Assembly: GCA_014905635.1 (NCBI GenBank)
Contig: JABVCE010000017.1
Span: 558,001-622,000, forward strand
Direction: 5' to 3'
DNA length: 64,000 nucleotides
Source of the DNA: Scenedesmus sp. PABB004
Lineage: Eukaryota
The translations under genes were made by a program, and so were the position numbers. Below are positions 4,774-53,035 of the stretch, in pieces. Under the pieces are notes generated by a model that searched no databases, was not told the origin of the DNA, and saw nothing but the letters and a program-made list of their open reading frames with translations. Numbering within the stretch: position 1 is the stretch's first letter; every line of letters begins with the position of its first letter.

Positions 4774-7546
4774 TCACTCCGCCTCGCCCGCCGCCGCCGC
4801 AGCCAGCGCGCGGCACACTGGCTTGTGCGCGCGCCACGCGGCCCTTTGGCAGGCCAGGCTGCAGAAGCGCGCGGGCGCCGCCGACGTGACGCACCCCGCG
4901 CACGTCCGGCCGCGCACCGCCGCCAGCTCGCTGAACGCGCCGTCCAGCGCCGTGCAGCGCGGGTTGTTGCAGCACGCGCGCAGCGGCAGCGCGGCGCACA
5001 CCGCGGCACACAGCTCCTCCGCCTGCGCAGCCAGCACCGGGCCGCGCTCGTGCACGGCAGGCAGCCCGGCCAGGCCGTCGGCCAGGGCGTCGTCCAGCTG
5101 CACGACCAGATCCTCCGACGCCGTGCACAGCTGCTCCTGCTGCGCCAGGAGGCTCCCCAGGCCCGCGCGCGAGGCGTCCGCCTGCAGCGGCCCCAGCGCG
5201 CGCAGGCGCGCGAACAGCAGCGCCGCCGCGTCGCGCAGGTCTGCCAGCATGCTCTGCAGTTCACTTGCCGGCAGCGGCTCGTCAGTGTTGCTGGGCGCGC
5301 CCGCGCCGGCCGCCGGCTGCATCGCCACCAGCGCCTGGCTCAGCAGCTGCGCCAGCACCGCCAGGCCGCGCGCCGCCAGCACCGCCCACAGCGCAGGCGG
5401 CTCGTACGCGAGCTGGCCACCGGCGGCTGCGACAGCTGCCGGCTGCGCGCGCGCCACCGCGTCGCCGACGGCGCAGCCGGTGCGCACCACCGCCAGGCAC
5501 CCGGTCGCCAGCTGTGGCAGCTCCTGCAGCGAGTCGGCCTCGCCTGCTGCAAGCGGGGTGCTGGCCGCCGCGCACTTGAGCGCCGTGAGCAGGCAGGCAC
5601 ACACCTCGCGCTGCAGCCGCAGGCCCGCGCCGCCGCCGGTGGTCATCAGCGCCGGCGCGGCGGCCAGGCTGGAACCGAGGCGACGGATGGCGCCGCACAT
5701 TGCGTGGGCTGTGGACAGGGCGATGCGCGGCACCTGGTTCGCCGCCCAGCACCTGGCCGCGCCCTCCAGCAACCGGCACAGGGTGGCGGGGTCCTGCTGC
5801 GCAAACGCCGCGAGCGCCGCGTCCGCTGCGCGGCGGCAGCAGTGCCGGCGGAGGCGGAGGCAGCGTGAGTGGAGTGAGCGCGCGAGCAGGCAGGGCGCGA
5901 GTGCGCAAGCTCAGCACCCAGGCTTAGCTGCCGCCGGCGCGTCGCGCACCCTCCGTTCCACAGTTCAGCGTCAGGACTTGGCCACAGCCTGCCAGACCGT
6001 GCAAAGCATTTCGTCGCCGGGCAGCCGCCAGCTCGTCCGCGCCCTCTGTGCCCGCCGCCGACGCGGAGCGGGGCATGACGCCCGCCTCTGGCTCCAGCAG
6101 CGCATCGGCGACGCGCCGGGCGAGCGGCAGGAACGCGCACACCACCGCCGCAGCCGCCGCCGCTGCCACCGCCTGGTTGGCCGCCGCTGCACCTTCAGAG
6201 GCTGGCCGGAGGCAGTCCATGATGGTGTCGGCGCAAATCACGCCGGCCACCAGTGCGTCTGGCGTTGACTGCAGCGCGGCGAGCTCCAGCGCCGCTTCCG
6301 CCGCTGCGGCCGCCAGCCCCACGCTGCCGACCGCTGCCAGGCCGCTGGCGCTGGCGCCGCTGCCGGCGCAGCTGGTCGGCGGCGAGACATCAAACAGGCG
6401 GGCAACTGCAGACATGCTGTCCATCACCAGCTCCTCGCTGTGATCGCCCTCGGGCACAGCAGAGGCGTCCAGCTCCAGCGCGCGCAGCAGCGCGGCGTGC
6501 GCCGCCGGCACGACGGGCGCGGCGCCGCCGCCAGAGCCGCCCCGGCCGTCAGCGGCGGCCGGCCGGCCGCGCTGCGCCTTGTGCCGGTGCGCCGCGCGCA
6601 GGGCGAGGTTGGCCAGCAGCAGCTGCTGCACCGCGGGGTCCGCCAGCAGCGACCGCTCCGCCTCTGCGCTCACGAGGCCGTGCTGCTCGGCCAGCACGAC
6701 ACTGTGGGCCATCCACCAGGATGCTCTGCACGCCACGCCAAGAGCGGGAACTACGACGCACACCATGGAGCCGCCGCCGGCCGCCGCGCGCCAGGCGCCG
6801 GCGCGGCGCAGCACGGCGAGCGCCAGCCGCGCGACCGGCTGCACAAGCGGCAGCAGCGGGCCCTGCAGCTCGCCCTCAGGCGGCCAGGCGGTGCGCGCGA
6901 CGTCTGCCGCCGTCAGCAGCGAAGCTGTTGCCATGCACGATGCCGTCAGCTCAGCGCTGCGCCCCTGCTCCTGCTGCCGCCGCCGCCGCTGCTTCTGCTG
7001 GGCCTCCAGCTCTGCGGCGAGGGCGGTGCAGGCCGCGGCCAGTGGCGGCAGCACGCCTGCGGGCGCGCGACGGTCACGGCCTGGTCAGGGGTGGGCCCGG
7101 CAGCTGCTGGCGCGCAGACCGCCAGCCGCCCGCCGCCCGCCGCCCGCCCGCCGCTCACCCGCGCGCTCCACCTCGGCCGCCAGCTCCGCCTTTGGCGCGC
7201 CAAGCATGGTGCGGATGTCAAAGCTGTTCTGAAGTACGCGGCACAGGCCGCCCAACGTCGTGCTGAGGCCCGCGCTGGCGACCGCCGCCGCTAGGCGCGT
7301 CTCCGGCGCCGCCGCCAGCTGCAGCACGCAGGCCAAGGCGTCCCCCAGCCGCGCCTGCACGCCGGGGGCGAGCAGCGCGGCCAGGTCGGCGCAGGGCGAG
7401 CCACTGGCCTCGGCTTCCTCGACCAGGCCGTCGAAATAGGCACGCAGCGGGTCTGCGCCTGCAGCCTCCGCCGCGAGCGCGTCGACGCTGCTCGCGCGCG
7501 CGCAGCGGCCCAGCAGGCCCGCCAGCTCCGCCGTCTCGGGCCGCAT
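4774..7546 (-). CDS. Helical protein with C-terminal MYND-type zinc finger, family copy 1 (3 exons)
   Basis: Starts MRPETAELAG. GT-AG introns at about 7158-7057 and 5949-5826 match the paralogs. C-terminus CCNNPRC...TCAGC...RFCSLACQRAAWRAHKPVC is MYND-like. Frame appears intact. Confidence 0.85.
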
Positions 7547-7859: not shown

Positions 7860-13703
<5,844 letters not shown>

Positions 13704-16012: not shown

Positions 16013-18818
16013 ATGCCGCCCGAGACCGCGGCCCTAGCGGGCTGGCTGGCCCGCTGCGCGCGCGCGAGCAGCGTCGGCGCGCTCGCGGCGGAGGCGGACG
16101 CCGCGGAGCCGATGCGTGCGCATTTCGACGGCCTGGTCGAGGAAGCCGACGCCAGGGGCTCGCCCTGCGCCGACCTGGCCGCGCTGCTGGCCGCCGGCGT
16201 GCAGGCGCGGCTGGCGCAGGCCGTGGCGCGCGCGCTGGAGCTCCTGACGGCGCCAGCGACACGCCCGGCGGCGGCGGCGGCGGGCACCAGGGGCTCCAGC
16301 ATGACGCTTTATTGCCTTATATGCGTGCTGAGGAGCAGCTTTTGCATCCGTGCCACGCTTGGTGCGCCGATTGTGGAGCTGGCGGCCGAGGTGGAGCGCG
16401 CGGGTGAGCGGCGTGCGAGCGGCGGGCGGCGGGTGCTGGCGGTCTGCGCGCCAGCAGCTGCCGGGCCCACCCCTGACCAGATTGTGACTGTCGCGCCGCA
16501 GGCATGCTGCCGCCGCTGGCCGCGGCCTGCACTGCCCTCGCCGCGGAGCTGGAGGCCCAGCAGCAGCAGCAGCGGCGGCGGCAGCAGCAGCAGCAGCGGC
16601 GGCGGCAGCAGCAGCAGCAGCGGCAGGCGGGCAGTGCTGAGCTGTTTGCGCTGAGCACGACGGCAGGTGCGCTGCTGATGGCAGCACACACTGCTTATGA
16701 CGCCTGGCGACACAGCCAGCTGGAGGGCCCGCTGCTGCCGCTGGCGCAGCCGGCGGCGCGGCTGGCGCTCGCAGTGCTGCGCTGCGCCGGCGCCTGGCGC
16801 GCGGCGGCAGGCGGCAGCTCAAGCATGGGCACCCTGGTGCAGTTAACTGTCACTGAGGCGCGCATAGGGGCCTGGGGGGCAGCCCAGAGTGTCGTGCTGG
16901 CCCAGGAGCAATGCCGCGGGACTGCTGAGGCGCTGGGAGCACTGCTGTCAGACCCCGCAGTGCAGCAGCTGCTGCTGGCCAACCTCGCCCTGCGCGCGGC
17001 GCACCGGCACGAGGCGCAGCGCGGCCGGCCGGCTGCCGCCGACGGCCGCGTCGGCTCCAGCGGCGGCGGCGCGCCCGTCGTGCCGGCGCGGCACGCCGCG
17101 CTGCTGCGCGCGCTGGAGCTGGACGCCTCTGCGGTGCCCCAGGCAGAGAACAGCGAGAGGCTTGTGGAGTGTAGCATTGCTGCAGTCGGTTCGCTGTTTG
17201 CTGTCTCGCCGCCGACCAGCTGTGGCGGCAGCACTGGCGCCAGCGCCAGCGGCCTGCCAGCGGTCGGCGCGGGGCTGGCGGCCGCAGCGGCGGAGGTGGC
17301 GCTGGAGCTGGCCGCGCTGCAGCCAACGCCAGACGTGCTGGTGGCCGGCGTGATTTGCGCCGGCACCATCATGGACTGCCTCCGGCCAGCCTGCCACGGT
17401 GGGGCCTGGGACGACCAGGCGGCGGCAGACGCGGCGTCGGCGACGGTGGTGCGCGCGTTCCTGCCGCTCGCCCGGCCCACCGCCGCCGCGCTGCTGGAGC
17501 CAGAGGCGGGCAGCCCGCCCCGCGCGGCGGCTGCAGCTGCGGGCACAGACGGCGTGGACGAGCTGGCGGCTGCCCGGGCGCAGCGCACTCTGGCCGGTCT
17601 GAAGGCCTGTGGCCGAATCCTGCTGTGGCCCAACGGAGCGGAGGGTGCGTGGCGTGCCGCGCTGGCGGCAGCTCGCCCGGCCGAGTGGCGCACAGTCCGC
17701 CTCCCTGTCTGCGCGCTCGCTCACGCTGCCGCCGCCGCCGACACTGCTGCCGCCACGCAGCGGACGCAGCGCTGGAGGCGTTTGCGCGGCAGGACCCCTC
17801 CACCCTGTGCCGGCTGCTGGAGGGCTCGGCCAGGAGCTGGGCGGGCATTGACGTGTCGCGCTCTGCCCTGAGCGCAGCCTACTCTGTGTGCCGTGCCATC
17901 AGCCGCCTCGAGCCCAGCCTGGTGGACGCGCCGGCGCTGACGACCACCAGCGGCGGCGCGGGCCTGCGGCTGCAGCGTGAGGTGTTTGCCTGCCTGCTCA
18001 CGGCCCTCAAGTGCGCGGCGGCCGGCGCCCCGCTCACAGCGGCCGAGGCCAACCCCCTTCAGCAGCTGCTGGCACTGGCGGGCGGGTGCCTGGAGGTGGT
18101 GAGCACCGGCTGCACCATTGGCGACGCGGTGGCGCACGTGCAGCCGGCAGCCGTGGCAGCCGCCGGCGGCCAGCTCGCGTACGAGCCGCCCGCGCTGTGG
18201 GCGGTGCTGGCGGCACGCGGCGTGGCGGTGCTGGCGCAGCTGCTGGGCCAGGTGCTGGCTGCGCCACGGCCCACATTAGGCGCGGGCGCCCATCGCGACG
18301 CTGGTGCGGCAGGCGAGCTGGTGCTGCTGGTGACTGCTGGCGCCGTGGTGGCGGACCTGCGCGACGTGGCGACGCTGCTGGGCGCGCGCCTGCGCGCGCT
18401 GGGGCCGCTGCCGGCGGACCCCTAGCGCACGAGCCTGGAGCTCCTGCTGGCGCAGCAGGAGCAGCTGTGCACGGCGTCGGAGGATCTGGTCGTGCAGCTG
18501 GACGGCGCCCTGGCCGACGGCCTGGCCGGGCTGCCCGCCGTGCACGAGCGCGGCCCCGCGCTGGCCGCGCAGGCGGAGGAGCTGTGTGCCGCGGTGTGCG
18601 CCGCACTGCCGCTGCGCGCGTGCTGCAACAACCCGCGCTGCACGGCGCTGACCGACGCGCTCAGCGAGCTGGCGGCGGTGCGCGGCCGGACGTGCGCGGG
18701 GTGCGTCAAGTCGGCGGCGCCCGCGCACTTCTGCAGCTTGGCTTGCCAGAGGGCTGCGTGGCGCGCGCACAAGCCGGTGTGCCGCGCGCTGGCCGCGACG
18801 GCGGATGAGGCGGCGTGA
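16013..18818 (+). pseudogene. MYND-family copy 2 with in-frame TAG before the zinc finger (pseudogene or truncated allele)
   Basis: Same 3-exon structure (intron 1 at 16404-16501). TAG at 18423-18425 where the paralogs have a Ser codon (TCG in copies 3-5, TCC in copy 1). The frame then continues to an intact MYND-like finger and TGA at 18816-18818. Confidence 0.75.
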
Positions 18819-19379
18819 ACGGGGGTCGCGCGGCCTTTACAACGACTGGAAACAGTCCGCGCGCGCACGTCAGCTGCCCCCCCCCCTCCGCCGCCGCTCC
18901 CCCAGGCGCAGCCGCGCAAGCGCAGCGCAGCGATCCTGCCGCGCACGCGCCGCACGCGCGCTGCCCACGCTGTTGGCGCCGCCGCTGGCGTCACCTGACA
19001 GTGCCGGCTCGCCGGGGAGCGCGGCGGGCGCGCGCCTGCGAGCAGCTGCGCTGGGCGTGCCGCGCACCGGCGTTGCACTGGCAACGCCATGCGCGCCGGC
19101 GCCCGCAGGTCCCCGCGCCGCCGCCAGCAGCCAATGCCGCCGCGCCGCCCGCCGCTGCGTGCGCGCTGCTGGAGCTGCCGCTGCCAGCGCCGCCGCCGCG
19201 ACTGCACCACACCCGCGCTCCATGCCCTTCTGACTGCTGGCCGCGCAACAGGCGGCCCGGGCCGCAAGAGCTGCGCGCCGCTGCCGCCAGCCAATCCAGC
19301 CTGCTCAGTCCCGTTGGTCCCAAGACCAGCAGCGGGCGCTCCCGATACTGCCGCTGTCACTCTGCCAAGCGGGCACGGC

Positions 19380-19790
19380 GCTGCGCGGCGCAGCTGCTGC
19401 AGCGCTCTTGCGCGCGCCGCCGCCGCCACTGCGCGCGCCGCCGCCGCACCGCCGCCGCCGCTGCGCGCGCCGCCGCTGCGCGCCGCCACCGTCGTTGCAG
19501 CGCGCCGCCGCTGCGTGCGCCGCCGCGCGCCGCCGCCGTCGTTGCTGCACGCCGCCGCCGCTGCGCGCGCGCCGCCGCTGCGCGCGCGCCGCCGCCGCTG
19601 ATGCACGCGCCGCCGCTGCCGCGCGCGCCGCCGCCACCGCGCGCGCCGCCGCTGCGCGCGCCGCCGCGGGCGCCGCCGCCGTTGCGCGCGCGCTGCCGCA
19701 GCGCGAGCCGCCGCGCGCCGTTGCCGCCTCTCGCCGCCGCGCGCGCCTTCGCAGCTGGGCGGCGCGAGCGGCGGCAGCGCCGCCGCACCC
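19380..19790. repeat. Low-complexity GCC/GCG-rich degenerate tandem repeat
   Basis: Repeated gcgcgcgccgccgccg(ctg)-like units between two convergent genes. Confidence 0.6.
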
Positions 19791-19803
19791 ACGGGGCCCT
19801 GGT

Positions 19804-20916
19804 TCACTCGGCCGAAGCAGCCTGCGGGCGCGAGAGGGAGGAGGAGCGGGCAAGGGGTCAAGGAGACGCGGCAGGGAGCGGCAGCAGCGGCGGCGGCGGC
19901 GGCGCTGGCCCTCGCGCCCAGCACGCCTCCCACGCACGCCCCGCGTGCGGGCCCGCTCCCGCCTGCGCGCGCACCTGGCCGTCGCCGTCGGGCTGGGCGG
20001 CCTCCGCCTCCTCGCCGCCGGCGGCGGCCGCGGGCTCGTCGCCCGCGTCCGGCTCGTCGCCGGCCGCCGTGCGCTGGCGCTTGGCGCCCGGCTCGCCCTC
20101 CAGCTCGGGCGCCTCGTGCCCGCCCGCGGCGGCGGCGTCGTCGTCGCCCGCCGGGTCGGCGGCGGGCGCGGCCGCGTCCGCGGCGTCGCCGGCGGGCGGG
20201 TCGGCGCCGTCGGCGGCGGGCGGGTCGGCGGCCTCGGCCGCGGCGGCCGGCGCGTCGCCGGGCGCCGCGGCGGTCGCGTCGGCGCTGGCCGCCGGCTCGG
20301 CGGCCGCGGGCGCGGCCGCGGCGGGCGCGGCCGCGGCGGCCATCACGGCCGCGGCGGCGTAGGGGTCGGACGCGACCGCGTGCGCGTGCCCGGCCGCCGC
20401 GGCCGTGGCCGCGGCGGCGGCGTAGTACGCGGCCGCGTAGTCGGTGGTGGAGGCGGTGTAGGCGGACGGCACCGCGGCCGCCGCGCCGCCCGCGCCGTGG
20501 CTGAAGCGGCACGCGTCGCCGCGGAAGCAGCGGCCGCGCGTGAAGTCGGCGCAGACCTCGTGGCCGCCCGTCTGCACGGCCGGCGCGCCCGCCACGTCGT
20601 GGCTGAAGCGGCAGGCGTCGCCGCGGAAGCAGCGCCCGCGCGTGTAGTCCATGCAGACCTCGTGCCCCGGCGGCATCTGCTGCACCGGCGGCGCGCCCGG
20701 CACGTCGTGGCTGTAGCGGCACGCGTCGCCGCGGAAGCAGCGCCCGCGCGTGTAGTCCATGCAGACGGGCAGGCCCGACGTCGGCGCGCCGTAGCCGCCG
20801 GCGGCGGGGGCACCGTAGCCGCCCGCGCCGCCGGCGGCGCCGTAGCCCGCGTACGCGCCGTAACCGGCCGCGCCGTAGCCGGCGCCGTAGCCGGCGGCAC
20901 CCGGGTAGTAAGACAT
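19804..20916 (-). CDS. Protein with three tandem C-x8-C-x5-C-x3-H-like CCCH fingers (putative RNA-binding)
   Basis: MSYYPGAAGYG... then three near-identical VC(M/A)D(Y/F)TRGRCFRGDACR(Y/F)SH units and an acidic tail with KRQR. The final intron leads to a short exon AASAE and a stop at 19804. Confidence 0.85.
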
Positions 20917-21392
20917 GTTCGCGAGGCGCGAGGGGCGGGGAGGCGGCTGATGCTGGGGGCCGCTGCCGGCGCGTGCGCTGGGCCGCGGCGCTTGCGCTGC
21001 GCTGCGGACGGGTCGCGGTGAAGAGGAGGCCCGACGGCAAGGCCGAGCGGGGGCTGTGGGCGCGCTGTCCGAGCCGGGGAGGGGCCGACGCTGCTGGAGA
21101 CGCCGATCACGGCGCGCGTGCGATGGAGAGGCGCAGAATGTCCCGGGCGGCGGCGGGGCGCGGGCACATGAGGCGCGGCCGCAGCGGCAGGCGAAGCTTC
21201 GGCATCGCTGAACCCCCGTCGTTGTTGAAGCGCTGGTATCGCGAGCGCATCCGGTCGCCACACTGCTGCTCGCCTGCCGGCGGCAGCGGCGGCAGCAAGC
21301 GGCGGCAGCAAGCGGCAGCGGCGGCAGCAAGCGGCGCCCCCCCACTGCCGCGGTCCCAGCCCGGGCGTGGCTCTGGCGGCGCTCCCCCCGGC

Positions 21393-24178
21393 ATGCGGCC
21401 CGAGACGGCCGCCGTGGCGGGCTGGCTGGGCCGCTGCGCGTGCGCGAGCAGCGCCGACGCGCTCGCGGCGGCGGACGCCCACGTCGCCGGCGCCGGGCAG
21501 CTGATGCGCGCCTATTTCGCCGACCTGGTCGAGGCCGCCGAGGCCAGGGGCTCGCCCTGCGCCGACCTGGCCGCGCTGCTGGCCCCAAGCGTGCAGGCGC
21601 GGCTGGCGCAGGCCGTGGCGCGCGGCCTGGCGCTGGCGGCTGCGCTGGCGCGTGCGCCGGCGACGGAGGGCAGCGTGCGCTTCGCCAAGTCGCTGTCCAG
21701 CCTGTGCAGCGTGCTGAAGAACAGCTTTTGCATCCGCACCATCCTTGGCGAGCCAAGGGCAGGGCTGGCGGCCGAGGCCGCGCTCGCTGGTGAGCGGCGG
21801 TTCGCGGTGGTCGGTCTGCGCCGGCAGCTGCTGCGCCCGCCCCCGACCACGCCGCTGCCGCTGCGCGCGCGCGCGCAGGCGTGCTGCCGCCGCTGGCCGC
21901 CGCCTGCGCCGCCCTCGCCGCGGAGCTGGAGCGGCAGCACCAGCGGCAGGCGGGCAGCGCTGAGCTGGCGGCGGCATCGTGCGCGGCAGCTGGGCTGCTG
22001 CGGGCGGAACGTGCCGTGCGCACCGTCTGGCCGCCTAACGGCCAGCTGCAGGGCCCGCTGCTGCCGCTGGCGCAGCCGACCGCGCGCCTGGCGCTCGCCG
22101 TGCTGCGCCGCGCCGGCTCGTGGCGGGCGGGCGGCGGGTTTCGGGGGCTCAGACGTGGAGCCGGCTCTTGCCCAGGCGCGCGCAGTGGCCTGGTGGACAG
22201 CCCAGAGTGTGGTGGCAGCCCGCCGCAGCGGCTGCGTGAGCGCAGAGGCAGAGCGCGCGCTGCTGGCAGACCCCGCGGTGCAGCAGCTGCTGCTGGCGGA
22301 GCTCGCGCTGCGCGCGGCGCACCGGCACAAGGCGCAGCGCGGCCGGCCGGCCGCCGCCGACGGCCGCGCCCGCTCCGGCGGCAGCGGCGGCGCGCCCGAC
22401 GTGCCGGCCCTGCACGCCGCGCTGCTGCGCGCGCTGGAGCTGGACGCCAGCGCGGTGCCCCCGGGCGATCACAGTGAGGGGCTAGTGATTGAGAGCATCT
22501 CTGCAGTTGGCCACATGTTCCATATCTCGCCGCCGACCAATTGCGCCGGCAGCGGCGCCAGGGCCAGCACCGACGCCAGCGGCCCGCCATCGGTCGGCGG
22601 CGCGGGGCTGGCGGCTGCAGCCGCGGAAGCGGCGCTGGAGCTGGTGGCGCTGCGGCCAACGCAAGACGTGCTGGCTGCTGGCGCCGTGTGCGCCGGCACC
22701 GCCATGCGCTGCCTCGGGCCACCCTCTCCGGCGGCGACCGACCCGGCAGCGTCGGCGATTGCGGCTGCGGCAGTGCTGCGCGCGTTCCTGCCGCTCGCTC
22801 GGCCCGTCGCCGCCGCGCTGCTGGAGCCAGAGGCGGGCGTCACGCCCCGCTCGGCGACGGCAGGCACACAGGGCGCGGACGAGCTGGCGGCTGCCCGGCG
22901 ACAAAATGCTGTGTGCGGTCTGGTGGGCTGTGCCCACGTCCTGCTGTGCAGCAACGGAGCGCAGGGTGCGCTGCGTACTGCGCTGGCGGCAGCTCGCCCG
23001 GCCGAGGGGCGCACAGTCCGCCTCCCTGTCTGCGCGCTCGCTCACGCTGCCTCTGCCGCCGACACTGCTGCCGCCGTGCAGCGGACGCGGCGCTGGCGGT
23101 GTTTGCGCGGCAGGACCCCTCCACCCTGTGCCGGCTGCTGGAGGGCTCGGCCAGGAGCTGGGCGGGCATTGACGTGTCGCGCTCTGCCCTGAGCGCAGCC
23201 TACTCTGTGTGCCGTGCCATCAGCCGCCTCGAGCCCAGCCTGGTGGACGCGCCGGCGCTGACGACCACCAGCGGCGGCGCGGGCCTGCGGCTGCAGCGTG
23301 AGGTGTTTGCCTGCCTGCTCACGGCCCTCAAGTGCGCGGCGGCCGGCGCCCCGCTCACAGCGGCCGAGGCCAACCCCCTTCAGCAGCTGCTGGCACTGGC
23401 GGGCGGGTGCCTGGAGGTGGTGAGCACCGGCTGCGCCATCGGCGACGCCGTGGCGCATGCGCAGCCGGCTGCTGTCGCAGCCGCCGGTGGCCAGCTCGCG
23501 TACGAGCCGCCCGCGCTGTGGGCGGTGCTGGCGGCACGCGGCGTGGCGGTGATGGCACAGCTGCTGAGCCAGGCGCTGGTGGCGCTGCAGCCGGCGGCCA
23601 GCGCGGCCGTGCCCACCGACGCTGGTGTGCCTGGCGAGCTAGAGCGGCTGGTGAATGCTGCCGCCGTGGTGGCGCACCTGCACGACGCGGTGGCGCTGCT
23701 GGGCGAGCGCCTGGGCGAGCTGGGGTCGCTGCCGGCGGACGCCTCGCGCGCGGGCCTGGAGCTCCTGCTGGCGCAGCAGAAGCAGCTGGACACAGCGGCG
23801 GCGGAGCTGGCCGACCAGCTGGACGGCGCCCTGGCCGACGGCCTGGCCGGGCTGCCCGCCGTGCACGAGCGCGGCCCCGCGCTGGCCGCGCAGGCGGAGG
23901 AGCTGTGCGCCGCGGTGTGCGCCGCGCTGCCGCTGCGCGCGTGCTGCAACAACCCACGCTGCGCGGCGCTGACCGGCGCGCACAGCGAGCTGTCGGCGGT
24001 GCGCGGCCGGGCGTGCGGGGGGTGCGTCAAGTCGGCGGCGCCTGCACGCTTCTGCGGCGTGGCCTGCCAGAGGGCTGTGTGGCGCGCGCACAAGCCGGTG
24101 TGCGCCGCGCTGGCTGCGGCGGCGGCGGCGACTGGCGGCGCGGCAGCCGCGCTGCCGCGTGCGGGCGAGGCGGAGTGA
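21393..24178 (+). CDS. MYND-family copy 3 (apparent 1-nt frameshift near 22130, real or assembly error)
   Basis: MRPETAAVAGWLGRC, same exon pattern, MYND-like C-terminus. Homology switches frame at tggcgggcgggcggcgggtttc (about 22121-22142). Confidence 0.78.
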
Positions 24179-24440
24179 GTGAGCGCGCGCGGCCGGGCTG
24201 TGGCTGACGCGTGCGTCGTCTGCTGGTTTGATGCAACGGCGGAGCAGGGCCTGCGGTTCGGGCGCGGCACGGTGCGGCGCCGCCGCTGCGGTTTGGCAAC
24301 CACTGCCGCCGCCTGCTTGGCGCCCCACTCAGCGGTCAGCGCTGCCCCTCACGCTCCGCGTGGCGCACACGACTCCCCGCTACCACCGGCGCCCCGCTGC
24401 GCCGCGGCAGGCGCGTTCCCGCCAGCACTCGCGTCGCATC

Positions 24441-37992: not shown

Positions 37993-39149
37993 ATGACCAG
38001 CGCCGCCGCGGCCGTGGACGGCGAGCCCGGCATCAAACGCTCGCCGAGCTTGCACACGCTCGCGCACTCGCTCAGGGCCACCAGCGTCACCGCGCCGGAC
38101 GTGGGCACCAAGGTCTGCCGCAGCAGCGCCGGCGGGCTGCGCGGCCGCAAGCCCCCCAGGGGCGCCGCGCCTCGCCCGGCAGCCCCGGCAACCGCGGCAG
38201 CCCCGGCAACCGCGCCGCACGCTCCGTGGGCGGCGTGCCCGCGGGCGCGACCGCGGCGGCGGCGCCGGCAGTTGCCGCTGCTCGCGCGCCGCTGCTCGCG
38301 CGGCTGCGGCCGACGCGCCGCCGCGCGGCGGGGTCGCAGGAGTTTGTGGCGTGCTGCGAGGAGATACTGCCGTTCTTCGACCACCTGGGCCCCGTGTTTG
38401 CCGTCGCGCGGGGCGAGTTTGAGGCGAAGCTCGACGTCCTGCAGGCGCAGGCCGCGGCGGCGCCGCGCCTCGCGGCCGTCGTCGCGGCCGACCGCGCCGC
38501 GCAGCGTGCCACGGTCAAGAACAGCGCGACGCGCAACCTGCACCGGCTCACCGCGGCCATCCTGTTCGTCAAGCTGCTCTTCGAGCGGCTCGTGGCAACA
38601 GACGCGGAGCCCGACGCAGGCGGCGGCGGCGGCGGCGGCGGCGGCGCGACGCTGCGCGAGGCAGCGAGCGCAGCGTGCGCGCCGCGCCGCGCCACCTGCA
38701 GCCCGAACGGCGCTGGCCGCGGGCCACCACCCGCCGGCGCGCGCCGGCGCCCAGGCCCGCCCGCGCGCCCGCGCAGGTACGAGGCGGCGCTCGCGCCCTT
38801 CCACACAGCCATCGTGCGCGGCGTGGTGCGCGCGGGGCTGCTGACGCTGCCGACCCGGGAGGCCTTCATCGCCGCCATTGGTGCGGCGCGGGGCGCGGGG
38901 CGGGGCGGGGCTGGGCGCGCGGGGCCGCCCGCGCCGGCGTGGCGCTCCGGCGGGAGCCGCGCGACCGCGCCGCCGCCGCGTGCCGCCCCCTGCGCCGCCG
39001 TCCCCTGCGCGGCAGGCGAGAGCGAGGACAGCGCGGCGGAGCGCGCGCGCGAGGTCGTGTCGCACTGCGCCGCCGTGCACGCGGCGGTGAGCGGCCTCCT
39101 CGGGGGCATCGACATGCCCGCCAGCAGCGTGTGGCTCTGGCCGCGGTGA
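37993..39149 (+). CDS. Glycolipid transfer protein family, ACD11/CPTP-like
   Basis: EFVACCEEILPFFDHLGPVFAVARGEFEAKL, KNSATRNLHRL and YEAALAPFHTAIVRGVVRAGLLTLPTREAF are GLTP-fold motifs. About 4 exons. Confidence 0.85.
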
Positions 39150-39653
39150 CCGCGTGCGCCTGGCAGCTCAGCGCGCGCGGCGCCGCCCCCCGGCCACCGC
39201 TCCCGCCGCTGCCGCTGTCCAGGCAGTCAGCCTCTTGCTTGCCCGCCGCCCGCGGCCGTCGCGCGCCGCGCGCCGCGCGTGCTGGGCCGCGGTCGCTCCG
39301 CCCACGACAAGCGGCACCGCGAGCCGCGGCCTGGCGAGGTGCAGCGGCAGGCCAGGCACCCCCCAGGACAGCCCGGCCGGCGCGGCGCGCGCCGCAGCGA
39401 GGGCCCGCGCCGCCGGCCTGCACCCCGCGCCTGCACCGCGGCCGTCCGCCCGCCGCCCCGTCGCTGCCGCTGACCACACCGGCCTGTGGGCCCCAGCCCC
39501 GTCGCGGCCTCGCGCGCCCGCCCTGCCCGCGCGCCGAGCAGCAGCAGCATCGGCGGCAGCGGCGGTGGTGCTCCGAGCACCGCTGCGCGCCCCCGCGGTC
39601 CCGTCGGCCCGCGCCAGCCCTCGCCAGCGCCTCTCGCTTGAGGCACAGGCATC

Positions 39654-42418
39654 ATGAGGCCCGAGACCGCGGAGCTGGAGGGCTGGCTGGGCCGCTGCGC
39701 GCGCGCGAGCAGCGTGGACGCGCTCGCGGCGGACGGCGTCGCCGGGGAGTCGCTGCGCGCCTACTTTGCCGGCCTGTCGAAGGCAGCCACAGCCAGTGGC
39801 TCGCCCTGCGCCGACCTGGCCGCGCTGCTGGCCGCCGGCGTGCAGGCGCGGCTGATCCAGGCCGTGGTCCGCGCGCTGGCGCTGGTGGCGGCGGCGCCGG
39901 CGACGCAGGTGGCGCTGGTGAACAGCATAGACTTCGCCGGCACGCTCAATGCCCTGTGCAGCGTTCAGCAGCAGAGCCATGAGATGCGCGCCATGCTTGG
40001 CGCGCCGAAGGCGGAGCTGGCGGCCGAGGTGGAGCGCGCGGGTGAGCGGCGGGCGGGCGGCGGGCGGCGGGCGTTGGCGGCCTGCGCGCCAGCAGCTGCC
40101 GGGCCTACCCCTGCCCAGACGGTGACCATCGCGCCCGCACAGGCATGCTGCCGCCGCTGGCCGCGGCCTGCGCCGCCCACGCCGCGGAGCTGGAGGCCCA
40201 GCAGCGGCGGCGGCAGCAGCAGCAGCTGCTGCGGCAGAGGTGCGCCGCTGAGCTGATTGCACTGAGCATGGCGGCAGGTGCGCTGCTGATGGCAGCAGAC
40301 ACCGCGTGTGACGCCTGGCCACAAGACCACCAGCTGGAGGGCCCGCTGCTGCCGCTGGCGCAGCCGGCCGCGCGGCTGGCGCTCGCGGTGCTACGCTGCG
40401 CCGGCGCCTTGCGCGCGGCGGCCAGTGGCATGCTGTCATTTGCGGTGCCTCTGGTGCAAAACGCGTTGACATATGCTCACATTGCAGCCTGGTGGACAGC
40501 CCAGAGTACCCTGGCCCAGCAGCCTGGCCGCGAGACTGCAGAGACGCTGCTGGCAGACCCAGCGGTGCAGCAGCTGCTGCTGGCCAACCTTGCCCTGCGC
40601 GCGGCGCACCGGCACGAGGCGCAGCGCGGCCGGCCGGCTGCCGCCGACGGTGGCGCCGGCTCTGCCGGCGGCAGCGCGCCCGTCGTGCCGGCCCGGCACG
40701 CCGCGCTGCTGCGCGCGCTGGGGCTGGATGCCTCTGCTGTGCCCCCGGGTGAGCACAATGAGAACCTGGTGGAGTGTAGCATCGCTGCAGTAGATATGCT
40801 GTTTGATGTCTCGCCGCCGACCGGCTGCGGCGGCAGCCTGCCGCAGCCACGCGGCGCGGGGCTGGCGGCCGCGGCGGCGGAGGTGGCACTGGAGCTGGTG
40901 GCTCTGCAGCCGACTTGGCGCTTGCTGGTGGCCGGCGTGAAGTGCGCCGGCACCATCAAAAACTGCCTCCGGCCAGCCTCCGAGGATGGGGCGTGGGACA
41001 ACCAGGCGGCGGCAGACGCAGCGTCGGCGGCGGTGCTGCGCGCGTTCCTGCCGCTCGCCCGGCCCGTCGCCGCCGCGCTGCTGGAGCCGGAGGCGGGCGT
41101 CGCGCCCCTCACGGCGGCGGCAGCCGCGCGCACAGACGGCGCGGACGAGCTCGAGGCTGACCGGCACAATGCTGAGAACGGTCTGGCGGGCTGTGCCCAA
41201 GTCCTGCTGCTGAGCAATGGAGCAGAGGGTGCGTGGTGTGCTGCGCTGGCGGCAGCTGGCCTGGTCGCTGAGGGGCGCACACCTCCCTGTCTGCGCGCTC
41301 GCTGACTCTGCCGCCGCCGCCGACACTGCTGCCGCTGCGCAGCGGACGCAGCGCTGGCGACGTTTGCGCGCCAGGACCCCTCCACGCTGTGCCGGCTGCT
41401 CGAGGGCTCAGCCAGGAGCTGGGCGGGCAAGGAGAGCCCGCGGGACGCCCTGGGCGCAGCCCACGCAGCGTGCAACGCCATCAGGCGGCTCGGGCCCAGC
41501 CTGGCAGCCGCGGCGGCGCTGGCGACAACCCAGGGCGGCGCGGGCCTGCGGCTGCAGCGCGAGGTGTTTGCCTGCCTGCTCACGGCCCTCAAGTGCGCGG
41601 CGGTTGGCGTGGGACCGGCGGCAGCCGCCCTTGGCAGGCATGAGCAGCTGCTGGCACTGGCGAGGTCGTGCCTGGACGTGGTGCGCGCCGGTTGTGCTGT
41701 CGGCGACGCGGTGGCGCGCGCGCAGCCGGCAGCTGTCGCAGCCGCCGGCGGCCAGCTCGCGTACGAGCCGCCCGCGCTGTGGGCGGTGCTGGCGGCGCGC
41801 GGCCTGGCGGTGATGGCGCAGCTGCTGAGCCAGCCGCTGGCGGCGCTCGAGCCGGCGGCTGGCGTGGCCTTGCCGAGCGATGCTGGCGCGCCTGGCGAGC
41901 TGGAGCTGCTGGAGACTGCTGCCGGCGTGCTGGCGCACCTGCACAGCGCAGCGGTGCTGCTGGGCACTCGCCTGCGCGCGCTGGGGCCGCTGCCGGCGGA
42001 CGCCTCGCGCGCGGGCCTGGAGCGCCTGCTGGCGCAGCAGGAGCAGCTGTGCACGGCGTCGGCTGAGCTGTTCACGCAGCTGTATGGTGACGACGCCCTG
42101 GACGACGACGATGCGGCCTCGCTCGCCACAGCGCAGGAGCAAGGCCCCGCGCTGGTCGCGCAGGCGGAGGAGCTGTGCAGCGCGGTGTGCGCCACGCTGC
42201 CGCTGCGCGCGTGCTGCAACAACCTGCGCTGCGTCGCGCTGGCCGGCGCGCTCAGCGAGCTGGCGGCGGTGCGCGGCCGGACGTGCGCGGGGTGCGTCAC
42301 GTCGGCCGCGCCCGCCCGCTTCTGCAGCCTGGCTTGCCAGAGGGCTGCGTGGCGCGCGCACAAGCCGGTGTGCCGCGCGCTGGCCGCGGCGGCGGCGGGC
42401 GCGCCGGGCGCCGAGTGA
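39654..42418 (+). CDS. MYND-family copy 4 (3 exons, apparently intact)
   Basis: MRPETAELEGWLGRC start, conserved intron positions, CCNNLRC...CAGC...FCSLACQRAAWRAHKPVC. Confidence 0.85.
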
Positions 42419-42659
42419 GGCGGAGTGAGCGGGTCGTTTGGCGGCGGCCGGGGCCCCTGTGCATGCTGAGTGGTTGTGGTGGCGGCGGCTGCAACTGTGA
42501 GTTGAGCGGGCCGCGGCCGGCCATCGCGCAACACCCTGTCCGCCGCACCGGCGCCGGAGCCTGCGTGCAGCGCGCGCTGTGCCGCCGCCGGCGGCGACGC
42601 CGCCACGCGCCCGGCAACAGCCCCAGCTCCAGAGCGAGTCACGGCGGCAGGGCGCTCCG

Positions 42660-43030
42660 CGCAGGTACGAGGCGGCGCTCGCGCCCTTCCACACAGCCAT
42701 CGTGCGCGGCGTGGTGCGCGCGGGGCTGCTGACGCTGCCGACCCGGGAGGCCTTCATCGCCGCCATTGGTGCGGCGCGGGGCGCGGCGGGGCGGGGCTGG
42801 GCGCGCGGGGCCGCCCGCGCCGGCGTGGCGCTCCGGCGAGAGCAACCGCGCCGCCGCCGCGTGCCGCCCCCTGCGCCGCCGTCCCCTGCGCGGCAGGCGA
42901 GAGCGAGGACAGCGCGGCGGAGCGCGCGCGCGAGGTCGTGTCGCACTGCGCCGCCGTGCACGCGGCGGTGAGCGGCCTCCTCGGGGGCATCGACATGCCC
43001 GCCAGCAGCGTGTGGCTCTGGCCGCGGTGA
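42660..43030 (+). pseudogene. Orphan duplicate of the last two exons of the GLTP/ACD11-like gene
   Basis: Near-identical to 38772-39149 (YEAALAPFH...WLWPR*) but the upstream exons are missing. Confidence 0.9.
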
Positions 43031-43420
43031 CCGCGTGCGCCTGGCAGCTCAGCGCGCGCGGCGCCGCCCCCCGGCCACCGCTCCCGCCGCTGCCGCTGTC
43101 CAGGCAGTCAGCCTCTTGCTTGCCCGCCGCCCGCGGCCGTCGCGCGCCGCGCGCCGCGCGTGCTGGGCCGCGGTCGCTCCGCCCACGACAAGCGGCACCG
43201 CGAGCCGCGGCCTGGCGAGGTGCAGCGGCAGGCCAGGCACCCCCCAGGACAGCCCGGCCGGCGCGGCGCGCGCCGCAGCGAGGGCCCGCGCCGCCGGCCT
43301 GCACCCCGCGCCTGCACCGCGGCCGTCCGCCCGCCGCCCCGTCGCTGCCGCTGACCACACCGGCCTGTGGGCCCCAGCCCCGTCGCGGCCTCGCGCGCCC
43401 GCCCTGCCCGCGCGCCGAGC
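42660..43420 (+). repeat. Second copy of a direct repeat of about 770 bp (first copy 38772-39538)
   Basis: By-eye alignment is near-identical with an offset of about 3.88 kb. It covers the GLTP 3' exons and the MYND upstream region. Confidence 0.92.
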
Positions 43421-43541: not shown

Positions 43542-46334
43542 ATGAGGCCTGAGACCGCGGCGCTGGCGGCCTGGCTGGGCCGCTGCGCGCGAGCGAGCAG
43601 CGTCAACGCGCTCGCGGCGGAGGGCGCCGCGGCGCAGCTGCGCGCCTATTTTGCCGGCCTGTCGAAGGCGGCCACCGGCAGTGGCTCGCTCTCCGCCGAC
43701 CTGGCCGCGCTGCTGGCCGCCGGCGTGCAGGCGCGAGCCGCGCAGGCCGTGGCGCGCGCGCTGGAGCAGCTGGCGGCGCGCCCGGCGGCGGCGGCGGGCA
43801 GCGAGGGCTTTGCCATCACGCTCAATGCCCTGTGCGACGTGCTGCAAAAGAGCCATGACATGCGCACCAGGCTTGGTGCGCCCGACACGGAGCTGGCGGC
43901 CGAGGTGGAGCGCGCGGGTGAGCGGCGTGCGAGCGCCGGGCAGCGGCAGTTGTCGGTCTGCGCGCCAGCAGCTGCCGGGCCCACCCCTGACCAGACCGTG
44001 ACCGTCGCGCCCGCAGGCATGCTGCCGCCGCTGGCCGCGGCCTGCACTGCCCTCGCTGCGGAGCTGGAGCAGCACCACCAGCGGCGGCGGCAGCAGCGGC
44101 AGCAGCCACAGCGGCATCGGCAGGGCGCCGGTGATGAGCTGATGGCACTGACCTTGACGGCAGGTGCGCTGCTGACGGCAGCACACACTGCTTTTTACGC
44201 CTGGTCGCAGCTGGAGGGCCCGCTGCTGCTGCTGGCGCAGCCGGCCGCGCGCCTGGCGCTCGCCGTGCTGCGCCGCGCCGGCGCCTCTCGCGCGGCGGCC
44301 GACGGCAGCTCAAGAATGGGCGCCGTGGTGCATTTAGCTGTCGCCAGGGCGCGCACCTGGGCCTGGGGGGCAGCCCAGGGTTTCGTGCAGGCCCAGGGGC
44401 GCGGCCGCGTGAGCGCAGACGCACAGCGCGCGCTGCTGTCAGACCCCGCAGTGCAGCAGCTGCTGCTGGCAGAGCTCGCCCTGTGCGCGGCGCACCGGCA
44501 CGAGGCGCAGCGCGGCCGGCCGGCTGCGGCCGACGGTGGCGCCAGCTCGGGCGGCGGCGGCCCGCCCGTCGTGTCGGCGCGGCACGCCGCGCTGCTGCGC
44601 GCGCTGGAGCTGGATGCCTCTGCGGTGCTCCAGGCAGAGCACAGCGAGGCGCTGGTGACGGACAGCATCTCTGCAGTTGCCCAGCTGTTTGATGTCTCGC
44701 CGCCGACCAGCTGCGGCGGCAGCCTGCCGCAGCCACGCGGCGCCGCGCTGGCTGCCGCGGCGGCGGAGGTGGCGCTGGAGCTGGTGGCGCTGCAGCCGAC
44801 GCGCCGCGTGCTGCTGGCTGGCGTGGTCTGCGCCGGCGCCATCGTAAACCGCCTCCTGCAAGCCTCGGAGGGTGGGGCGCAGGACAAACAGGCGGCGGCA
44901 GAGGCAGCGTCGGCGGCGGTGGTGCGTACGTTCCTGCCGCTCGCCCGGCCCACCGCCGCCGCGCTGCTGGAGCCGGAGGCGGGCAGCTCGCCCCACGCTG
45001 CGGCTGCAGCTGCGAGCACAGAGGGCGTGGACGAGCTCGAGGCTGACCGGCAGCGGCGCAATGCTTTGCGCGGTCTGGAGGTGGGCTGTGGCCCAGTCCT
45101 GCTGCTGAGCAATGGGGCAGAGGGTCCGTGGTGTGCTGCGCTGGCGGCAGCTGGCCTGGTCGCTGAGTGCGCACACTCGCAGTCTGCCTCGCGCCCTCGC
45201 TCACACCGCCTCTGCCGCCGCCAACACTGCTGCCGCCGCGCAGCGGACGCGGCGCTGGCGGTGTTTGCGCGGCAGGACCCCTCCACGCTGTGCCGGCTAC
45301 TGGAGGGCGCGGCCAGGAGCTGGGCGGGCTGGGAGGAGCCGCATGGCGCCCTGAGCGCAGCCCACGCAGTGTGCGACGCCATCAGGCGGCTCGGCCCCAG
45401 CCTGGCAGCCGCGCCGGCGCTGGCGACAACTGGCGGCGGCGCGGGCCTGCGTCTGCAGCGCGAGGTGTTTGCCTGCCTGCTCACGGCGCTCAAGTGTGTA
45501 GCAGAGGCCGCACCGCTCGCAGCGGCCGAGGCCGACTCGCTGCAGCGGCTGCGGGCGCTGGCGAGCGGATGCATGGCCGTGGTGCTCTCCGGCTGCGATG
45601 TCGGCGACGCGGTGGCGCACGCGCAGCCGGCAGCCGTGGCGGCCGCCGGCGGCCAGCTCGCGTACGAGCCGCCCGCGCTGTGGGCGGTGCTGGCGGCGCG
45701 CGGCCTGGCGGTGCTGGCGCAGCTGCTGAGCCAGGCGCTGGTGGTGCTGCAGCCGGTGGCCGACACGGCCGCGCCCAGCGACGCTGGTGCGCCTTGTGGG
45801 GTGGCGTCGCTGGATATCGCGGTGTTTGTGCTGGCGCACCTGCACGACGCGGCGACGCTGCTGGGCGAGCGCCTGCGCGCGCTGGGGCCGCTGCCGGCGG
45901 ACGCCTCGGGCGCGGGCCTGGAGCGCCTGCTGGCGCAGCAGGAGCAGCTGTGCACAGCGGTGGCGCAGCTGGCCGCGCAGCTGGACGGTGCCCTCGCCGA
46001 CGACGATGCGGCCTCGCTCGCCACAGCGCAGGAGCGCGGCCCCGCGCTGGCCGCGCAGGCGGAGGAGCTGTGCGCCGCGGTGTGCGCCGCGCTGCCGCTG
46101 CGCGCGTGCTGCAACAACCCGCGCTGCACGGCGCTGACCGGCGCGCACAGCGAGCTGGCGGCGGTGCGCGGCTGGACGTGCGCGGGGTGCGTCACGTCGG
46201 CCGCGCCCGCGCGCTTCTGCGGCGTGGCCTGCCAGGCAGCCGCGTGGCGCGCGCACAAGCCGGTGTGCCGCGCGCTGGCCGCGGGTGTGGCGGCGACTGG
46301 CGGCGCGGCCGCGCGTGCGGGCGAGGCGGAGTGA
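43542..46334 (+). CDS. MYND-family copy 5 (3 exons, apparently intact)
   Basis: MRPETAALAAWLGRC start, introns at 43918-44016 and 45124-45243, MYND-like finger, ends RAGEAE*. Confidence 0.85.
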   Translation: MRPETAALAAWLGRCARASSVNALAAEGAAAQLRAYFAGLSKAATGSGSLSADLAALLAAGVQARAAQAVARALEQLAARPAAAAGSEGFAITLNALCDVLQKSHDMRTRLGAPDTELAAEVERAGERRASAGQRQLSVCAPAAAGPTPDQTVTVAPAGMLPPLAAACTALAAELEQHHQRRRQQRQQPQRHRQGAGDELMALTLTAGALLTAAHTAFYAWSQLEGPLLLLAQPAARLALAVLRRAGASRAAADGSSRMGAVVHLAVARARTWAWGAAQGFVQAQGRGRVSADAQRALLSDPAVQQLLLAELALCAAHRHEAQRGRPAAADGGASSGGGGPPVVSARHAALLRALELDASAVLQAEHSEALVTDSISAVAQLFDVSPPTSCGGSLPQPRGAALAAAAAEVALELVALQPTRRVLLAGVVCAGAIVNRLLQASEGGAQDKQAAAEAASAAVVRTFLPLARPTAAALLEPEAGSSPHAAAAAASTEGVDELEADRQRRNALRGLEVGCGPVLLLSNGAEGPWCAALAAAGLVAECAHSQSASRPRSHRLCRRQHCCRRAADAALAVFARQDPSTLCRLLEGAARSWAGWEEPHGALSAAHAVCDAIRRLGPSLAAAPALATTGGGAGLRLQREVFACLLTALKCVAEAAPLAAAEADSLQRLRALASGCMAVVLSGCDVGDAVAHAQPAAVAAAGGQLAYEPPALWAVLAARGLAVLAQLLSQALVVLQPVADTAAPSDAGAPCGVASLDIAVFVLAHLHDAATLLGERLRALGPLPADASGAGLERLLAQQEQLCTAVAQLAAQLDGALADDDAASLATAQERGPALAAQAEELCAAVCAALPLRACCNNPRCTALTGAHSELAAVRGWTCAGCVTSAAPARFCGVACQAAAWRAHKPVCRALAAGVAATGGAAARAGEAE

Positions 46335-52429: not shown

Positions 52430-53035
52430 GTGCCCTGCGCGGCCGCGCATCGGCGCCGCGCGCCGCGCGCGTGCCGGCGCGCCGCGCGCGCCTCCGCCGC
52501 GGCCGCGGCCGCCGCGTCGGCGCGGCGCCCGAGCTGCCGCGCGTGGCGCTTGGCCTTCAGCACCGCGCTCGCCGCGCCGCGGCGCTGCCGAGCACGCCGA
52601 GCGTGCCCGGCAGCGGCCCGGGCGGGCCGCCGCGCGCGTCGTCGCCGCCGCCAAAGCCATAGCCAAAGCCGCCGTACCCCCGCCGCGGCCGAGCTTGAGC
52701 CTGCTCCGCTGCACGCCGAGCGGGCCGCGGCCGGTGCGCGGCGCGCCGCCCTGGGCGTTCCGCGGCCGCCGCCGGCACCGCGAGGCTGGCCGCAAACCCG
52801 TCGCGCGGCTTGTGCGCCGCCGCGCTCACCGCCGCGAGCGTCTCTGCCGCGGCCAGCGCGGCGGCGTCCTCGCTGAGCCGCTGCTCGCTGCCCGCCTGCG
52901 CCGGCGGCGGCGGCGCGCTGCCGCTGCCGACGCCGCCGCGCGGCGGGCCCGGGCCCGCGCCCGCGTGCCGCGCCTGCTGCGCCTGCTGCACCTGCTGCGC
53001 GAGCTGTGCCAGGGCCAGGCCCGGGTGCGCCGCCG
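52430..53035 (-). pseudogene. Inverted partial copy of the gene segment at 63428-64000
   Basis: Both copies encode AHPGL..AQQVQQAQQARHAGAG...EQRLSEDAAALAAAETLAAVSAAAHKPRDGFAASLAVP and YGGFGYGFGGGDD. No 5' part of the gene is present here. Confidence 0.85.

Follow-up and report, generated by a model that had tools for sequence, protein, structure and literature searches.

Gene copies in the window and in the genome

The window, by which we mean the whole 64,000-nucleotide stretch of Scenedesmus sp. PABB004 DNA analysed here (C10:558001-622000, C10 being its contig, in a genome of 40 Mb and 80 contigs), holds five copies of a 2.8-kb MYND-finger gene, and two of these copies share a tract of 334 identical bases that most likely records a true and recent ectopic gene conversion. 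The window has a GC content of about 78%, its introns are short and of the GT-AG type, and the five copies lie among ordinary genes (TAF13, a CCCH finger gene and GLTP).

4774-7546, minus strand: copy 1, three exons, intact model of 848 amino acids with the MYND finger at its end
16013-18818, plus strand: copy 2, exons 16013-16403, 16502-17644 and 17761-18818, model ending at 732 amino acids
21393-24178, plus strand: copy 3, exons 21393-21789, 21879-22965 and 23082-24178, with a +1 frame shift in exon 2
39654-42418, plus strand: copy 4, intact model of 849 amino acids
43542-46334, plus strand: copy 5, intact model of 857 amino acids

A genome search for the family gave 56 matches, and 40 of 208 candidates were scored. 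From 20 stretches taken out of the genome we analysed 24 near-full-length copies, leaving aside four fragmentary or distant loci (L003, L015, L019 and L020), and the family thus counts at least 24 copies. Eighteen of them lie between 413 and 772 kb of C10. Each of the 24 is made up of three exons (about 390, 1100 and 1070 bp) with the introns at the same places; ten models are intact through the MYND finger and the other 14 are broken.

An identical tract in copies 2 and 3

17780-18113, plus strand: the 334-bp tract in exon 3 of copy 2, an exact match to copy 3
23101-23434, plus strand: the same tract in copy 3
17645-17760, plus strand: intron 2 of copy 2
22966-23081, plus strand: intron 2 of copy 3, its counterpart
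18114-18258, plus strand: stretch adjoining the right end of the tract; here the nearest partner of copy 2 is the copy at 631 kb of C10 (4 differences, against 10-23 with others)
19978-20916, minus strand: CCCH zinc-finger gene, within the single-copy DNA that separates copy 2 from copy 3

A reading of the letters without database searches (hereafter the sequence-only reading) had noted some 320 identical bases at 17790-18113 and 23111-23433. When we compared the two copies, the 324 bases noted showed no difference, while the limits needed correction: the identity starts 10 bases earlier, at 17780, and ends in copy 3 at 23434 rather than 23433, giving 334 of 334 bases in the assembly sequence. 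The tract covers four predicted helices, two of them conserved and two variable (about residues 6-117 of exon 3), and does run, as had been claimed, through variable patches of two copies that diverge elsewhere, 350 of 1529 bases differing 5′ of intron 2 (23%) and 91 of 704 differing 3′ of the tract (13%). The preceding intron had been called near-identical, and 107 of its 116 bases are indeed the same (92%), without gaps. The other nine of the ten window pairs show 57-80 differences over the 334 tract bases and, among all 276 pairs of the 24 copies, the next-lowest divergence for this region is 8.7%, with a median of 19%. Of the silent third positions, 0 of 111 in the tract distinguish copy 2 from copy 3, compared with 41 of 298 before it and 18 of 177 after it. 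Seven tract bases are private to these two copies, being found in none of the 22 others, and of 25 genomic matches these two alone carry the tract, the next being 84% identical.

The tract has a GENECONV-style run score of 54, compared with null maxima of 10.0 in 200 permutations and of 12.6 and 16.7 in two sets of 100 clonal simulations each, the second of which was given exaggerated rate clustering; with the silent sites, these values bear out the conversion between copies 2 and 3 that had been proposed. As scored, the tract reaches back to 17652, and its start probably lies there, inside intron 2. Every state seen at the ten differences left of 17780 is also present in other copies. Across the spacer between copies 2 and 3 (18830-21390), one full-length match was found among the 40 scored matches. 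Since the DNA between the copies is single-copy, nothing there was gained or lost, which points to conversion or a double crossover and not to duplication; a single unequal crossover is rejected on the same ground. Segment trees disagree on the source, the tract grouping with copy 1 (83%) and the intron segment with the copy on contig C2.

Three points weigh against gene conversion as the explanation: in one genome, conversion and double crossover give the same pattern; the identity is known from the assembly consensus alone; and, of the 14 broken models, several owe the break to 1-base indels, which may be errors of the assembly. The tract could then be an artefact of assembly or polishing, in which the sequence of one copy overwrote the other in the consensus, and both the perfection of the identity and the many single-base indels in the family, which point to an imperfect consensus, are in line with this. 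However, cross-mapping should homogenise the most similar parts first, whereas here it is a variable region that is identical: the tract takes in patches that are 17-24% divergent in other pairs and least prone to cross-mapping, and 29 differences persist between copies 2 and 3 in their C-terminal parts, which are more alike. Differences also stand directly at both ends of the tract (17776 and 17779; 18114 and 18119). We therefore regard an artefact as unlikely. Diploidy has been reported in ten Scenedesmaceae strains, according to the part of the report consulted (PMC13315243); mixed haplotypes could add noise and would not explain identity between two loci. The tract is present as such in the assembly, and a conversion tract between neighbouring paralogs is the product of an ordinary, well-known process.

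Both partners of the tract carry lesions.

18423-18425, plus strand: in-frame TAG, present only in copy 2 among the 24 copies
22115-22140, plus strand: approximate site of the net +1 frameshift of copy 3, in a G/C-rich run upstream of the tract

The model of copy 2 stops before the MYND finger, the TAG taking away the last helices along with it, and the frameshift of copy 3 may be either a real lesion or a sequencing error. If both lesions are real, the event between copies 2 and 3 yielded no new full-length protein. As both partners look broken, the event may have been neutral; broken copies could still serve as donors.

Mosaic ancestry and exchange across the family

The sequence-only reading had also proposed that the closest partner of a copy changes along the gene. 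When the shared patches it had named were compared among the 24 copies, the best partners were those it had given.

16816-16887, plus strand: GSS.MG patch of copy 2, nearest copy 5 (83%, next 68%)
17161-17187, plus strand: LVECSIAAV patch of copy 2, nearest copy 4 (89%, next 70%)
17401-17442, plus strand: GAWD patch of copy 2, nearest copy 4 (93%, next 83%)
18447-18586, plus strand: two patches of copy 2 that overlap, one in common with copy 1 (18447-18556), the other with copy 3 (18495-18586, 92 bp exact)
24127-24235, plus strand: tail and 3′ flank of copy 3, nearest copy 5 (73%, next 47%)

TASEDLVVQLD, given as common to copies 1 and 2, is 100% identical between them (next 82%). The patch DDDAASLATAQE of copies 4 and 5 again has the best partner that was claimed (97%, next 81%), and yet it is weak as evidence of mosaicism because these two copies are sisters in the whole-gene tree (62% support).

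A single tree does not fit all segments. With 12 copies, eight of eight segments rejected the whole-gene tree (approximately unbiased test, p 0.02 to 9e-6), and the summed log-likelihood gain of the segment trees was 309 against a maximum of 19 in 25 clonal simulations, which places the mosaic ancestry that had been suggested far beyond clonal expectation. The pairwise homoplasy index (PHI; our own implementation, with false positives in 5% of 40 clonal simulations) gave z = -13.8 for the five window copies and -9.3 once intron 2 and the tract were removed. Without copy 3 the value was -8.6 and without copy 2 only -2.8, and copy 2 is therefore the most mosaic.

Parallel amino-acid change together with rate variation on one tree might mimic such a mosaic, as selection at the same sites can create homoplasy, and PHI restricted to silent sites, of which 54 were informative, gave no significant result for the five window copies (p 0.24), which tells against the exchange we propose. 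It was significant, however, for 11 copies (p 0.001) and for 24 copies (p 0.002), clonal simulations with clustered rates never came near the observed values, and parallel change cannot yield 334 identical bases with 111 silent sites next to an intron that is 92% identical. As a general account parallel change is scarcely credible and we reject it for the long tracts, while some of the shortest patches (27-40 bp) may owe part of their likeness to parallel replacement.

A tract scan that allows for column-wise rates, with the largest of 60 nulls as its cut-off, found 25 significant tracts in 23 of the 276 pairs, involving 23 of the 24 copies; they are 41-640 columns long (median 95), and the longest join neighbours 3-34 kb apart in either orientation. 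Within C10, 16 of 153 pairs share a tract and lie a median of 22 kb apart, compared with 88 kb for the rest, and between different contigs 7 of 123 pairs do, which suggests a neighbour bias of the exchange; against this, the effect of distance is confounded, because neighbours are closer kin and the pairs are not independent. Observed differences were 15 in 640 columns (93 expected), 0 in 158 (39), 2 in 149 (27) and 8 in 204 (39), those within the other tracts being mostly substitutions, and the tracts of the family would seem to be of graded ages. The top-scoring tract (L006:2489-3163 with L005:7124-7783, at about 495 and 488 kb of C10) has 15 differences in 640 columns and 238 bp exact; its partners are inverted neighbours, both with broken models. 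A collapse in the assembly cannot produce such long imperfect tracts in other pairs, and the mosaicism remains family-wide when the tract of copies 2 and 3 is set aside; both observations again speak against an artefact.

The shuffling had been described as cassette-like. Programmed cassette conversion of the VSG, vlsE or pilin type has fixed boundaries, a silent donor archive and one expressed recipient locus, and a dedicated system of this kind, in which silent donors supply expressed copies with variable segments in the manner of antigenic variation, could account for tracts that move whole variable helices, with the broken copies as donors. There is also a slight clustering of tract ends (16 close pairs against 9.6 expected, p 0.035), which arises largely because single events are counted in several pairs. 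But tract ends are scattered and mostly off exon borders, lengths vary over the full range given above without fixed boundaries, the tract of copies 2 and 3 has no third holder, and no array of fragments was seen. Nearly every copy takes part, with no single recipient, and the copies are all full genes dispersed among housekeeping genes (TAF13, CCCH and GLTP). A dedicated cassette mechanism is very unlikely, and this part of the sequence-only reading was not upheld. The pattern of the tracts fits instead an exchange that is layered, opportunistic and mainly among neighbouring copies.

A further case concerns the region upstream of copies 4 and 5.

38769-39539, plus strand: block that precedes copy 4 and takes in the last exons of a GLTP gene
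42657-43420, plus strand: the block again, ahead of copy 5, here with part of a GLTP gene

These blocks of about 770 bp are near-identical, with runs of 576, 130 and 54 bp exact, and at their left end we saw just a short GC-rich match at the 3′ end of an intron. The coding regions of copies 4 and 5 are 84% identical and have no 100-column window above 94%, which rules out a recent tandem duplication as the source of the likeness. The block has the look of a second recent exchange, by which copy 5 received the region upstream of copy 4 or an old duplicate was refreshed. The copy on C2 (about 1515 kb, L012:4690-4916) is missing the first ~180 coding bases, and upstream it carries a 66-bp patch that matches 42524-42589, in the 3′ flank of copy 4, at 89% identity, which suggests that this copy was derived from a tandem array. 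A transposon reading of the family was set aside, as no transposase-like domain was matched and the introns are kept; terminal repeats were not searched for.

Three other features of the window were noted. A poly-Gln/Arg stretch rich in CAG and CGG, at the start of exon 2 of copy 2 (16550-16625), varies among copies from near-absent to more than 20 residues. Long CA/TG dinucleotide repeats lie in opposite orientation at 8725-8880 and 10713-10918. An inverted pair (52479-53074 and 63374-64000), 89% identical with 154 bp exact, is duplicated sequence with patchy identity.

Protein architecture and relatives

Modelling suggests that the family consists of all-helical, armadillo-like proteins of about 850 amino acids with a conserved C-terminal MYND finger. 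We folded exons 2 and 3 separately, from alignments of 19 and 17 copies. Both models are all-helical, with a predicted local distance difference test score (pLDDT) of 78 for exon 2 and 76 for exon 3, the MYND part of the latter being below 50. The closest structures to exon 2 were KAP3 (Z 12.6, root-mean-square deviation 3.6, 212 residues aligned) and APC-ARM (Z 11.8, deviation 4.7, 232 aligned), with beta-catenin at Z 10.9; these scores are below the clear level for helical repeats. Exon 3 was best matched by designed helical repeats (Z 16.0). Two results temper the armadillo likeness: Z values below 13 for helical repeats may reflect a common arrangement only, and Pfam found no ARM repeat over the 930-amino-acid frame of copy 5. 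That frame (43542-46331) exists because both introns of copy 5 are open in frame, and intron retention would lengthen the isoform. For exon 3, Foldseek gave nothing in the Protein Data Bank (PDB) at E ≤ 0.001, and a PDB sequence search returned only weak matches to MYND/C6H2 fingers (E 0.08-0.33).

The finger itself is conserved. Among 17 exon-3 sequences, C289, C294, C312, C315, C325, C329, W334 and H337 are invariant and C341 nearly so, and eight Cys/His positions are conserved with the ending C-x3-CQ-x3-W-x2-H-x3-C; these Cys and His residues are presumably the zinc ligands, as we take it from MYND spacing. MYND fingers bind proline-rich co-repressor motifs. The only Pfam match of the copies is zf-MYND (PF01753), found in 17 of 17 sequences at E ≤ 0.1, with the window proteins scoring 16-17 bits against a gathering score of 22.7; when the genome was searched, the loci of copies 1 and 4 rose above the gathering cut-off.

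An exon-3 profile found 923 clusters at E ≤ 0.001, the matches lying mostly in the last helices and the finger; several of these clusters are proteins of 900-1000 amino acids whose only Pfam match is a terminal MYND. The N-terminal two thirds had no clear database match beyond near-identical family members. The nearest database proteins carry the label Scenedesmus sp., and a more distant relative is the Tetradesmus obliquus MYND protein A0A383VT77, both of which point to a green alga of the Sphaeropleales type. In the Atlas, the whole protein matched Chlorophyta zf-MYND clusters (0.92-0.93, with recognition below threshold) and exon 2 had no usable match; the automatic name 'phytol kinase' was not adopted. 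A metagenome scan found two distant MYND-only loci among 50 candidates. Within the genome, C8, C32, C46, C76 and C20 carry distant helical-plus-MYND genes, several of them clustered on C8, with 32-59% identity to exon 3, and these are probably older subfamilies. Public gene models of close relatives in the family run on into unrelated neighbouring genes and take their names from these (CYL3, PYRB2, ASC1-like), and such misnamed fusions may explain why the family was overlooked.

Selection on variable helices

Codon models were run on 791 codons of intact exons (20, 19 and 17 copies), in 14 segments each with its own tree, after dropping the poly-Q stretch, the ragged tail and gappy columns. 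M2a was favoured over M1a by twice the log-likelihood difference (2dL) of 427 under F61 and 409 under F3x4, with 10-12% of the codons at omega 3.9-4.0 and about 55% at 0.15. In five neutral simulations in which the tree changed every 14 codons, 2dL ranged from 1.8 to 17.9. Four of these five exceed 11, showing a small false signal, and the codon bias (87% GC at third positions) lowers synonymous divergence; both detract from the selection result. Recombination alone does not make the observed signal. We also devised a tree-free, held-out test, in which the top decile of variable codons was chosen in one clade and scored in the other. In the other clade, divergence at these codons was 0.42 at positions 1 and 2 versus 0.335 at third positions, the family-wide divergence being 0.30 in introns and 0.21 at four-fold sites.

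Under both frequency models, 43 of the 791 codons lie above threshold. In exon 2, helices 37-63, 98-128, 210-226, 262-285 and 337-362 carry 5-6 selected sites each, and helices 70-94, 143-166, 240-258 and 288-317 have none above 0.95; in the MYND region, none of 63 sites is selected. The autocorrelation of selected sites peaks at lags 3, 4 and 7, and in the models they fall on alternate predicted helices at i+3/4/7 spacing. A one-face moment was significant for exon 1 85-108, exon 2 98-128 and 210-226, and exon 3 32-54. It was not significant on others, for example exon 2 37-63 and 337-362, a point against our account of the family. The tract of copies 2 and 3 holds 13 sites with a posterior above 0.5 and thus transfers two variable helices together. 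Judging from the sequences, much of the variation would have arisen as point substitution under positive selection and then been reassorted by conversion.

A largely non-functional repeat family in neutral turnover, with conversion as a by-product and relaxed variable patches, would explain why both partners of the tract and 14 of the 24 models look broken, and it would suit proteins that are Ala-rich and low in complexity. Against it stand the purifying selection on more than half of the codons, the intron positions and splice sites kept in nearly all copies, and the replacement divergence at variable codons of the held-out clade, which exceeds that of introns and four-fold sites. For the family neutral turnover is quite unlikely, though it may apply to the single event between copies 2 and 3.

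Comparison with known systems

Plant clusters of nucleotide-binding leucine-rich repeat receptors (NLRs), such as Arabidopsis RPP8 and the highly variable NLRs, are described in the consulted parts of two reports as undergoing intergenic conversion and having variable solenoid residues (PMC6771003, PMC8226289). As far as those parts go, the likeness lies in paralog exchange by conversion, variable residues clustered on a solenoid and diversity above neutral. NB-ARC/NACHT, LRR and TIR domains are absent from the Pfam matches of the algal family, which are zf-MYND only; its proteins are a helical solenoid plus MYND, from a single-celled alga and known from one genome. To go by its sequences, the algal family seems to evolve like plant NLR clusters while being no NLR.

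A similar architecture is that of Mub1, which in the excerpts available combines an Armadillo-type domain with zf-MYND in fission yeast (PMC8645331) and in budding yeast serves the E3 ligase Ubr2 as its substrate adaptor (PMC12505455). The likeness, a helical ARM-type body followed by a MYND finger, is one of architecture only; Mub1 is described there as one conserved gene, whereas the algal family is expanded and variable. In Chlamydomonas, the cited passages present the NCL (OPR-RAP) genes as clustered, lineage-specific helical-repeat genes formed by recurrent duplication, which act on chloroplast RNA and in which single substitutions alter the target (PMC8226300, PMC8635915). On that description they resemble our family as lineage-specific clusters of green-algal helical-repeat genes that diversify by duplication, and differ in having OPR repeats and a RAP domain, neither of which Pfam found in the algal MYND family.

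Birth-death and paralog exchange are also described, in the part of the report seen, for the brown-algal candidate receptors ROCO-LRR and NB-ARC-TPR and for the Podospora HNWD NLRs (PMC13449251), together with a few hypervariable selected positions per repeat. Their repeats are given as near-identical, or one per exon, and shuffled as units; the algal MYND family has instead three large exons, no near-identical internal repeats and free tract ends. MYND expansions are mentioned without function in the passages at hand for Edaphochlamys debaryana (PMC8226300) and for a Scenedesmus strain (PMC7955037). These chlorophyte MYND orthogroups have the same C-terminal helix-plus-MYND module, and in those passages the expansions are reported without conversion, selection or fold. 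Within the open-licence literature we found neither conversion nor positive selection described for an algal MYND family, and a family with an armadillo-like solenoid, a MYND finger and an NLR-like evolutionary signature appears to be undescribed.

Proposed mechanism and role

Taken as a whole, the account that we consider probable is one of recent ectopic conversion within a birth-and-death family that encodes a variable recognition solenoid; its genetic part is highly probable. One copy would have been repaired with its neighbour, 5.3 kb away in the same orientation, as the template, and this event would be one of many in the family. Ordinary homology-directed repair would suffice to copy the tracts, with no dedicated machinery. 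Point mutation under diversifying selection would make new surface residues, and conversion would pass them from copy to copy, one helix or a few at a time. What the family itself shows is local duplication, sequence exchange among its copies, a scaffold under purifying selection and alternate helices under diversifying selection.

A variable recognition or adaptor role is what we infer from this pattern. The variable helices of the armadillo-like solenoid would bind changing targets, and the constant MYND finger would couple the target to a fixed cellular partner, as a substrate adaptor does; the adaptor idea comes from yeast Mub1, which pairs an Armadillo-type domain with zf-MYND and is the adaptor of Ubr2. 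That such a recognition role is driven by biological conflict is conceivable, though we would put it at somewhat less than an even chance.

More speculative still, and rather doubtful as it stands, is the view that these genes represent a chlorophyte class of variable intracellular recognition proteins, in which an ARM-like solenoid with an arms-race face is joined to a constant MYND finger. If this were true, captured proteins of foreign origin, such as those of giant viruses or parasites, would be passed by the finger to a partner in degradation or signalling, and the repertoire would be renewed by point selection and by helix-sized conversion among clustered copies. In function the family would then correspond to plant NLR clusters while being built on an unrelated scaffold, and this would account for the MYND expansions that recur, unannotated, in green algae. 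The expansion unites the signs of a recognition family, namely clustering, turnover, exchange and strong, patterned selection beside a constant domain. The 334-bp block is a natural two-helix swap for locating specificity, and the family is a concrete candidate, with named residues, for how single-celled green algae may recognise viruses and other invaders.

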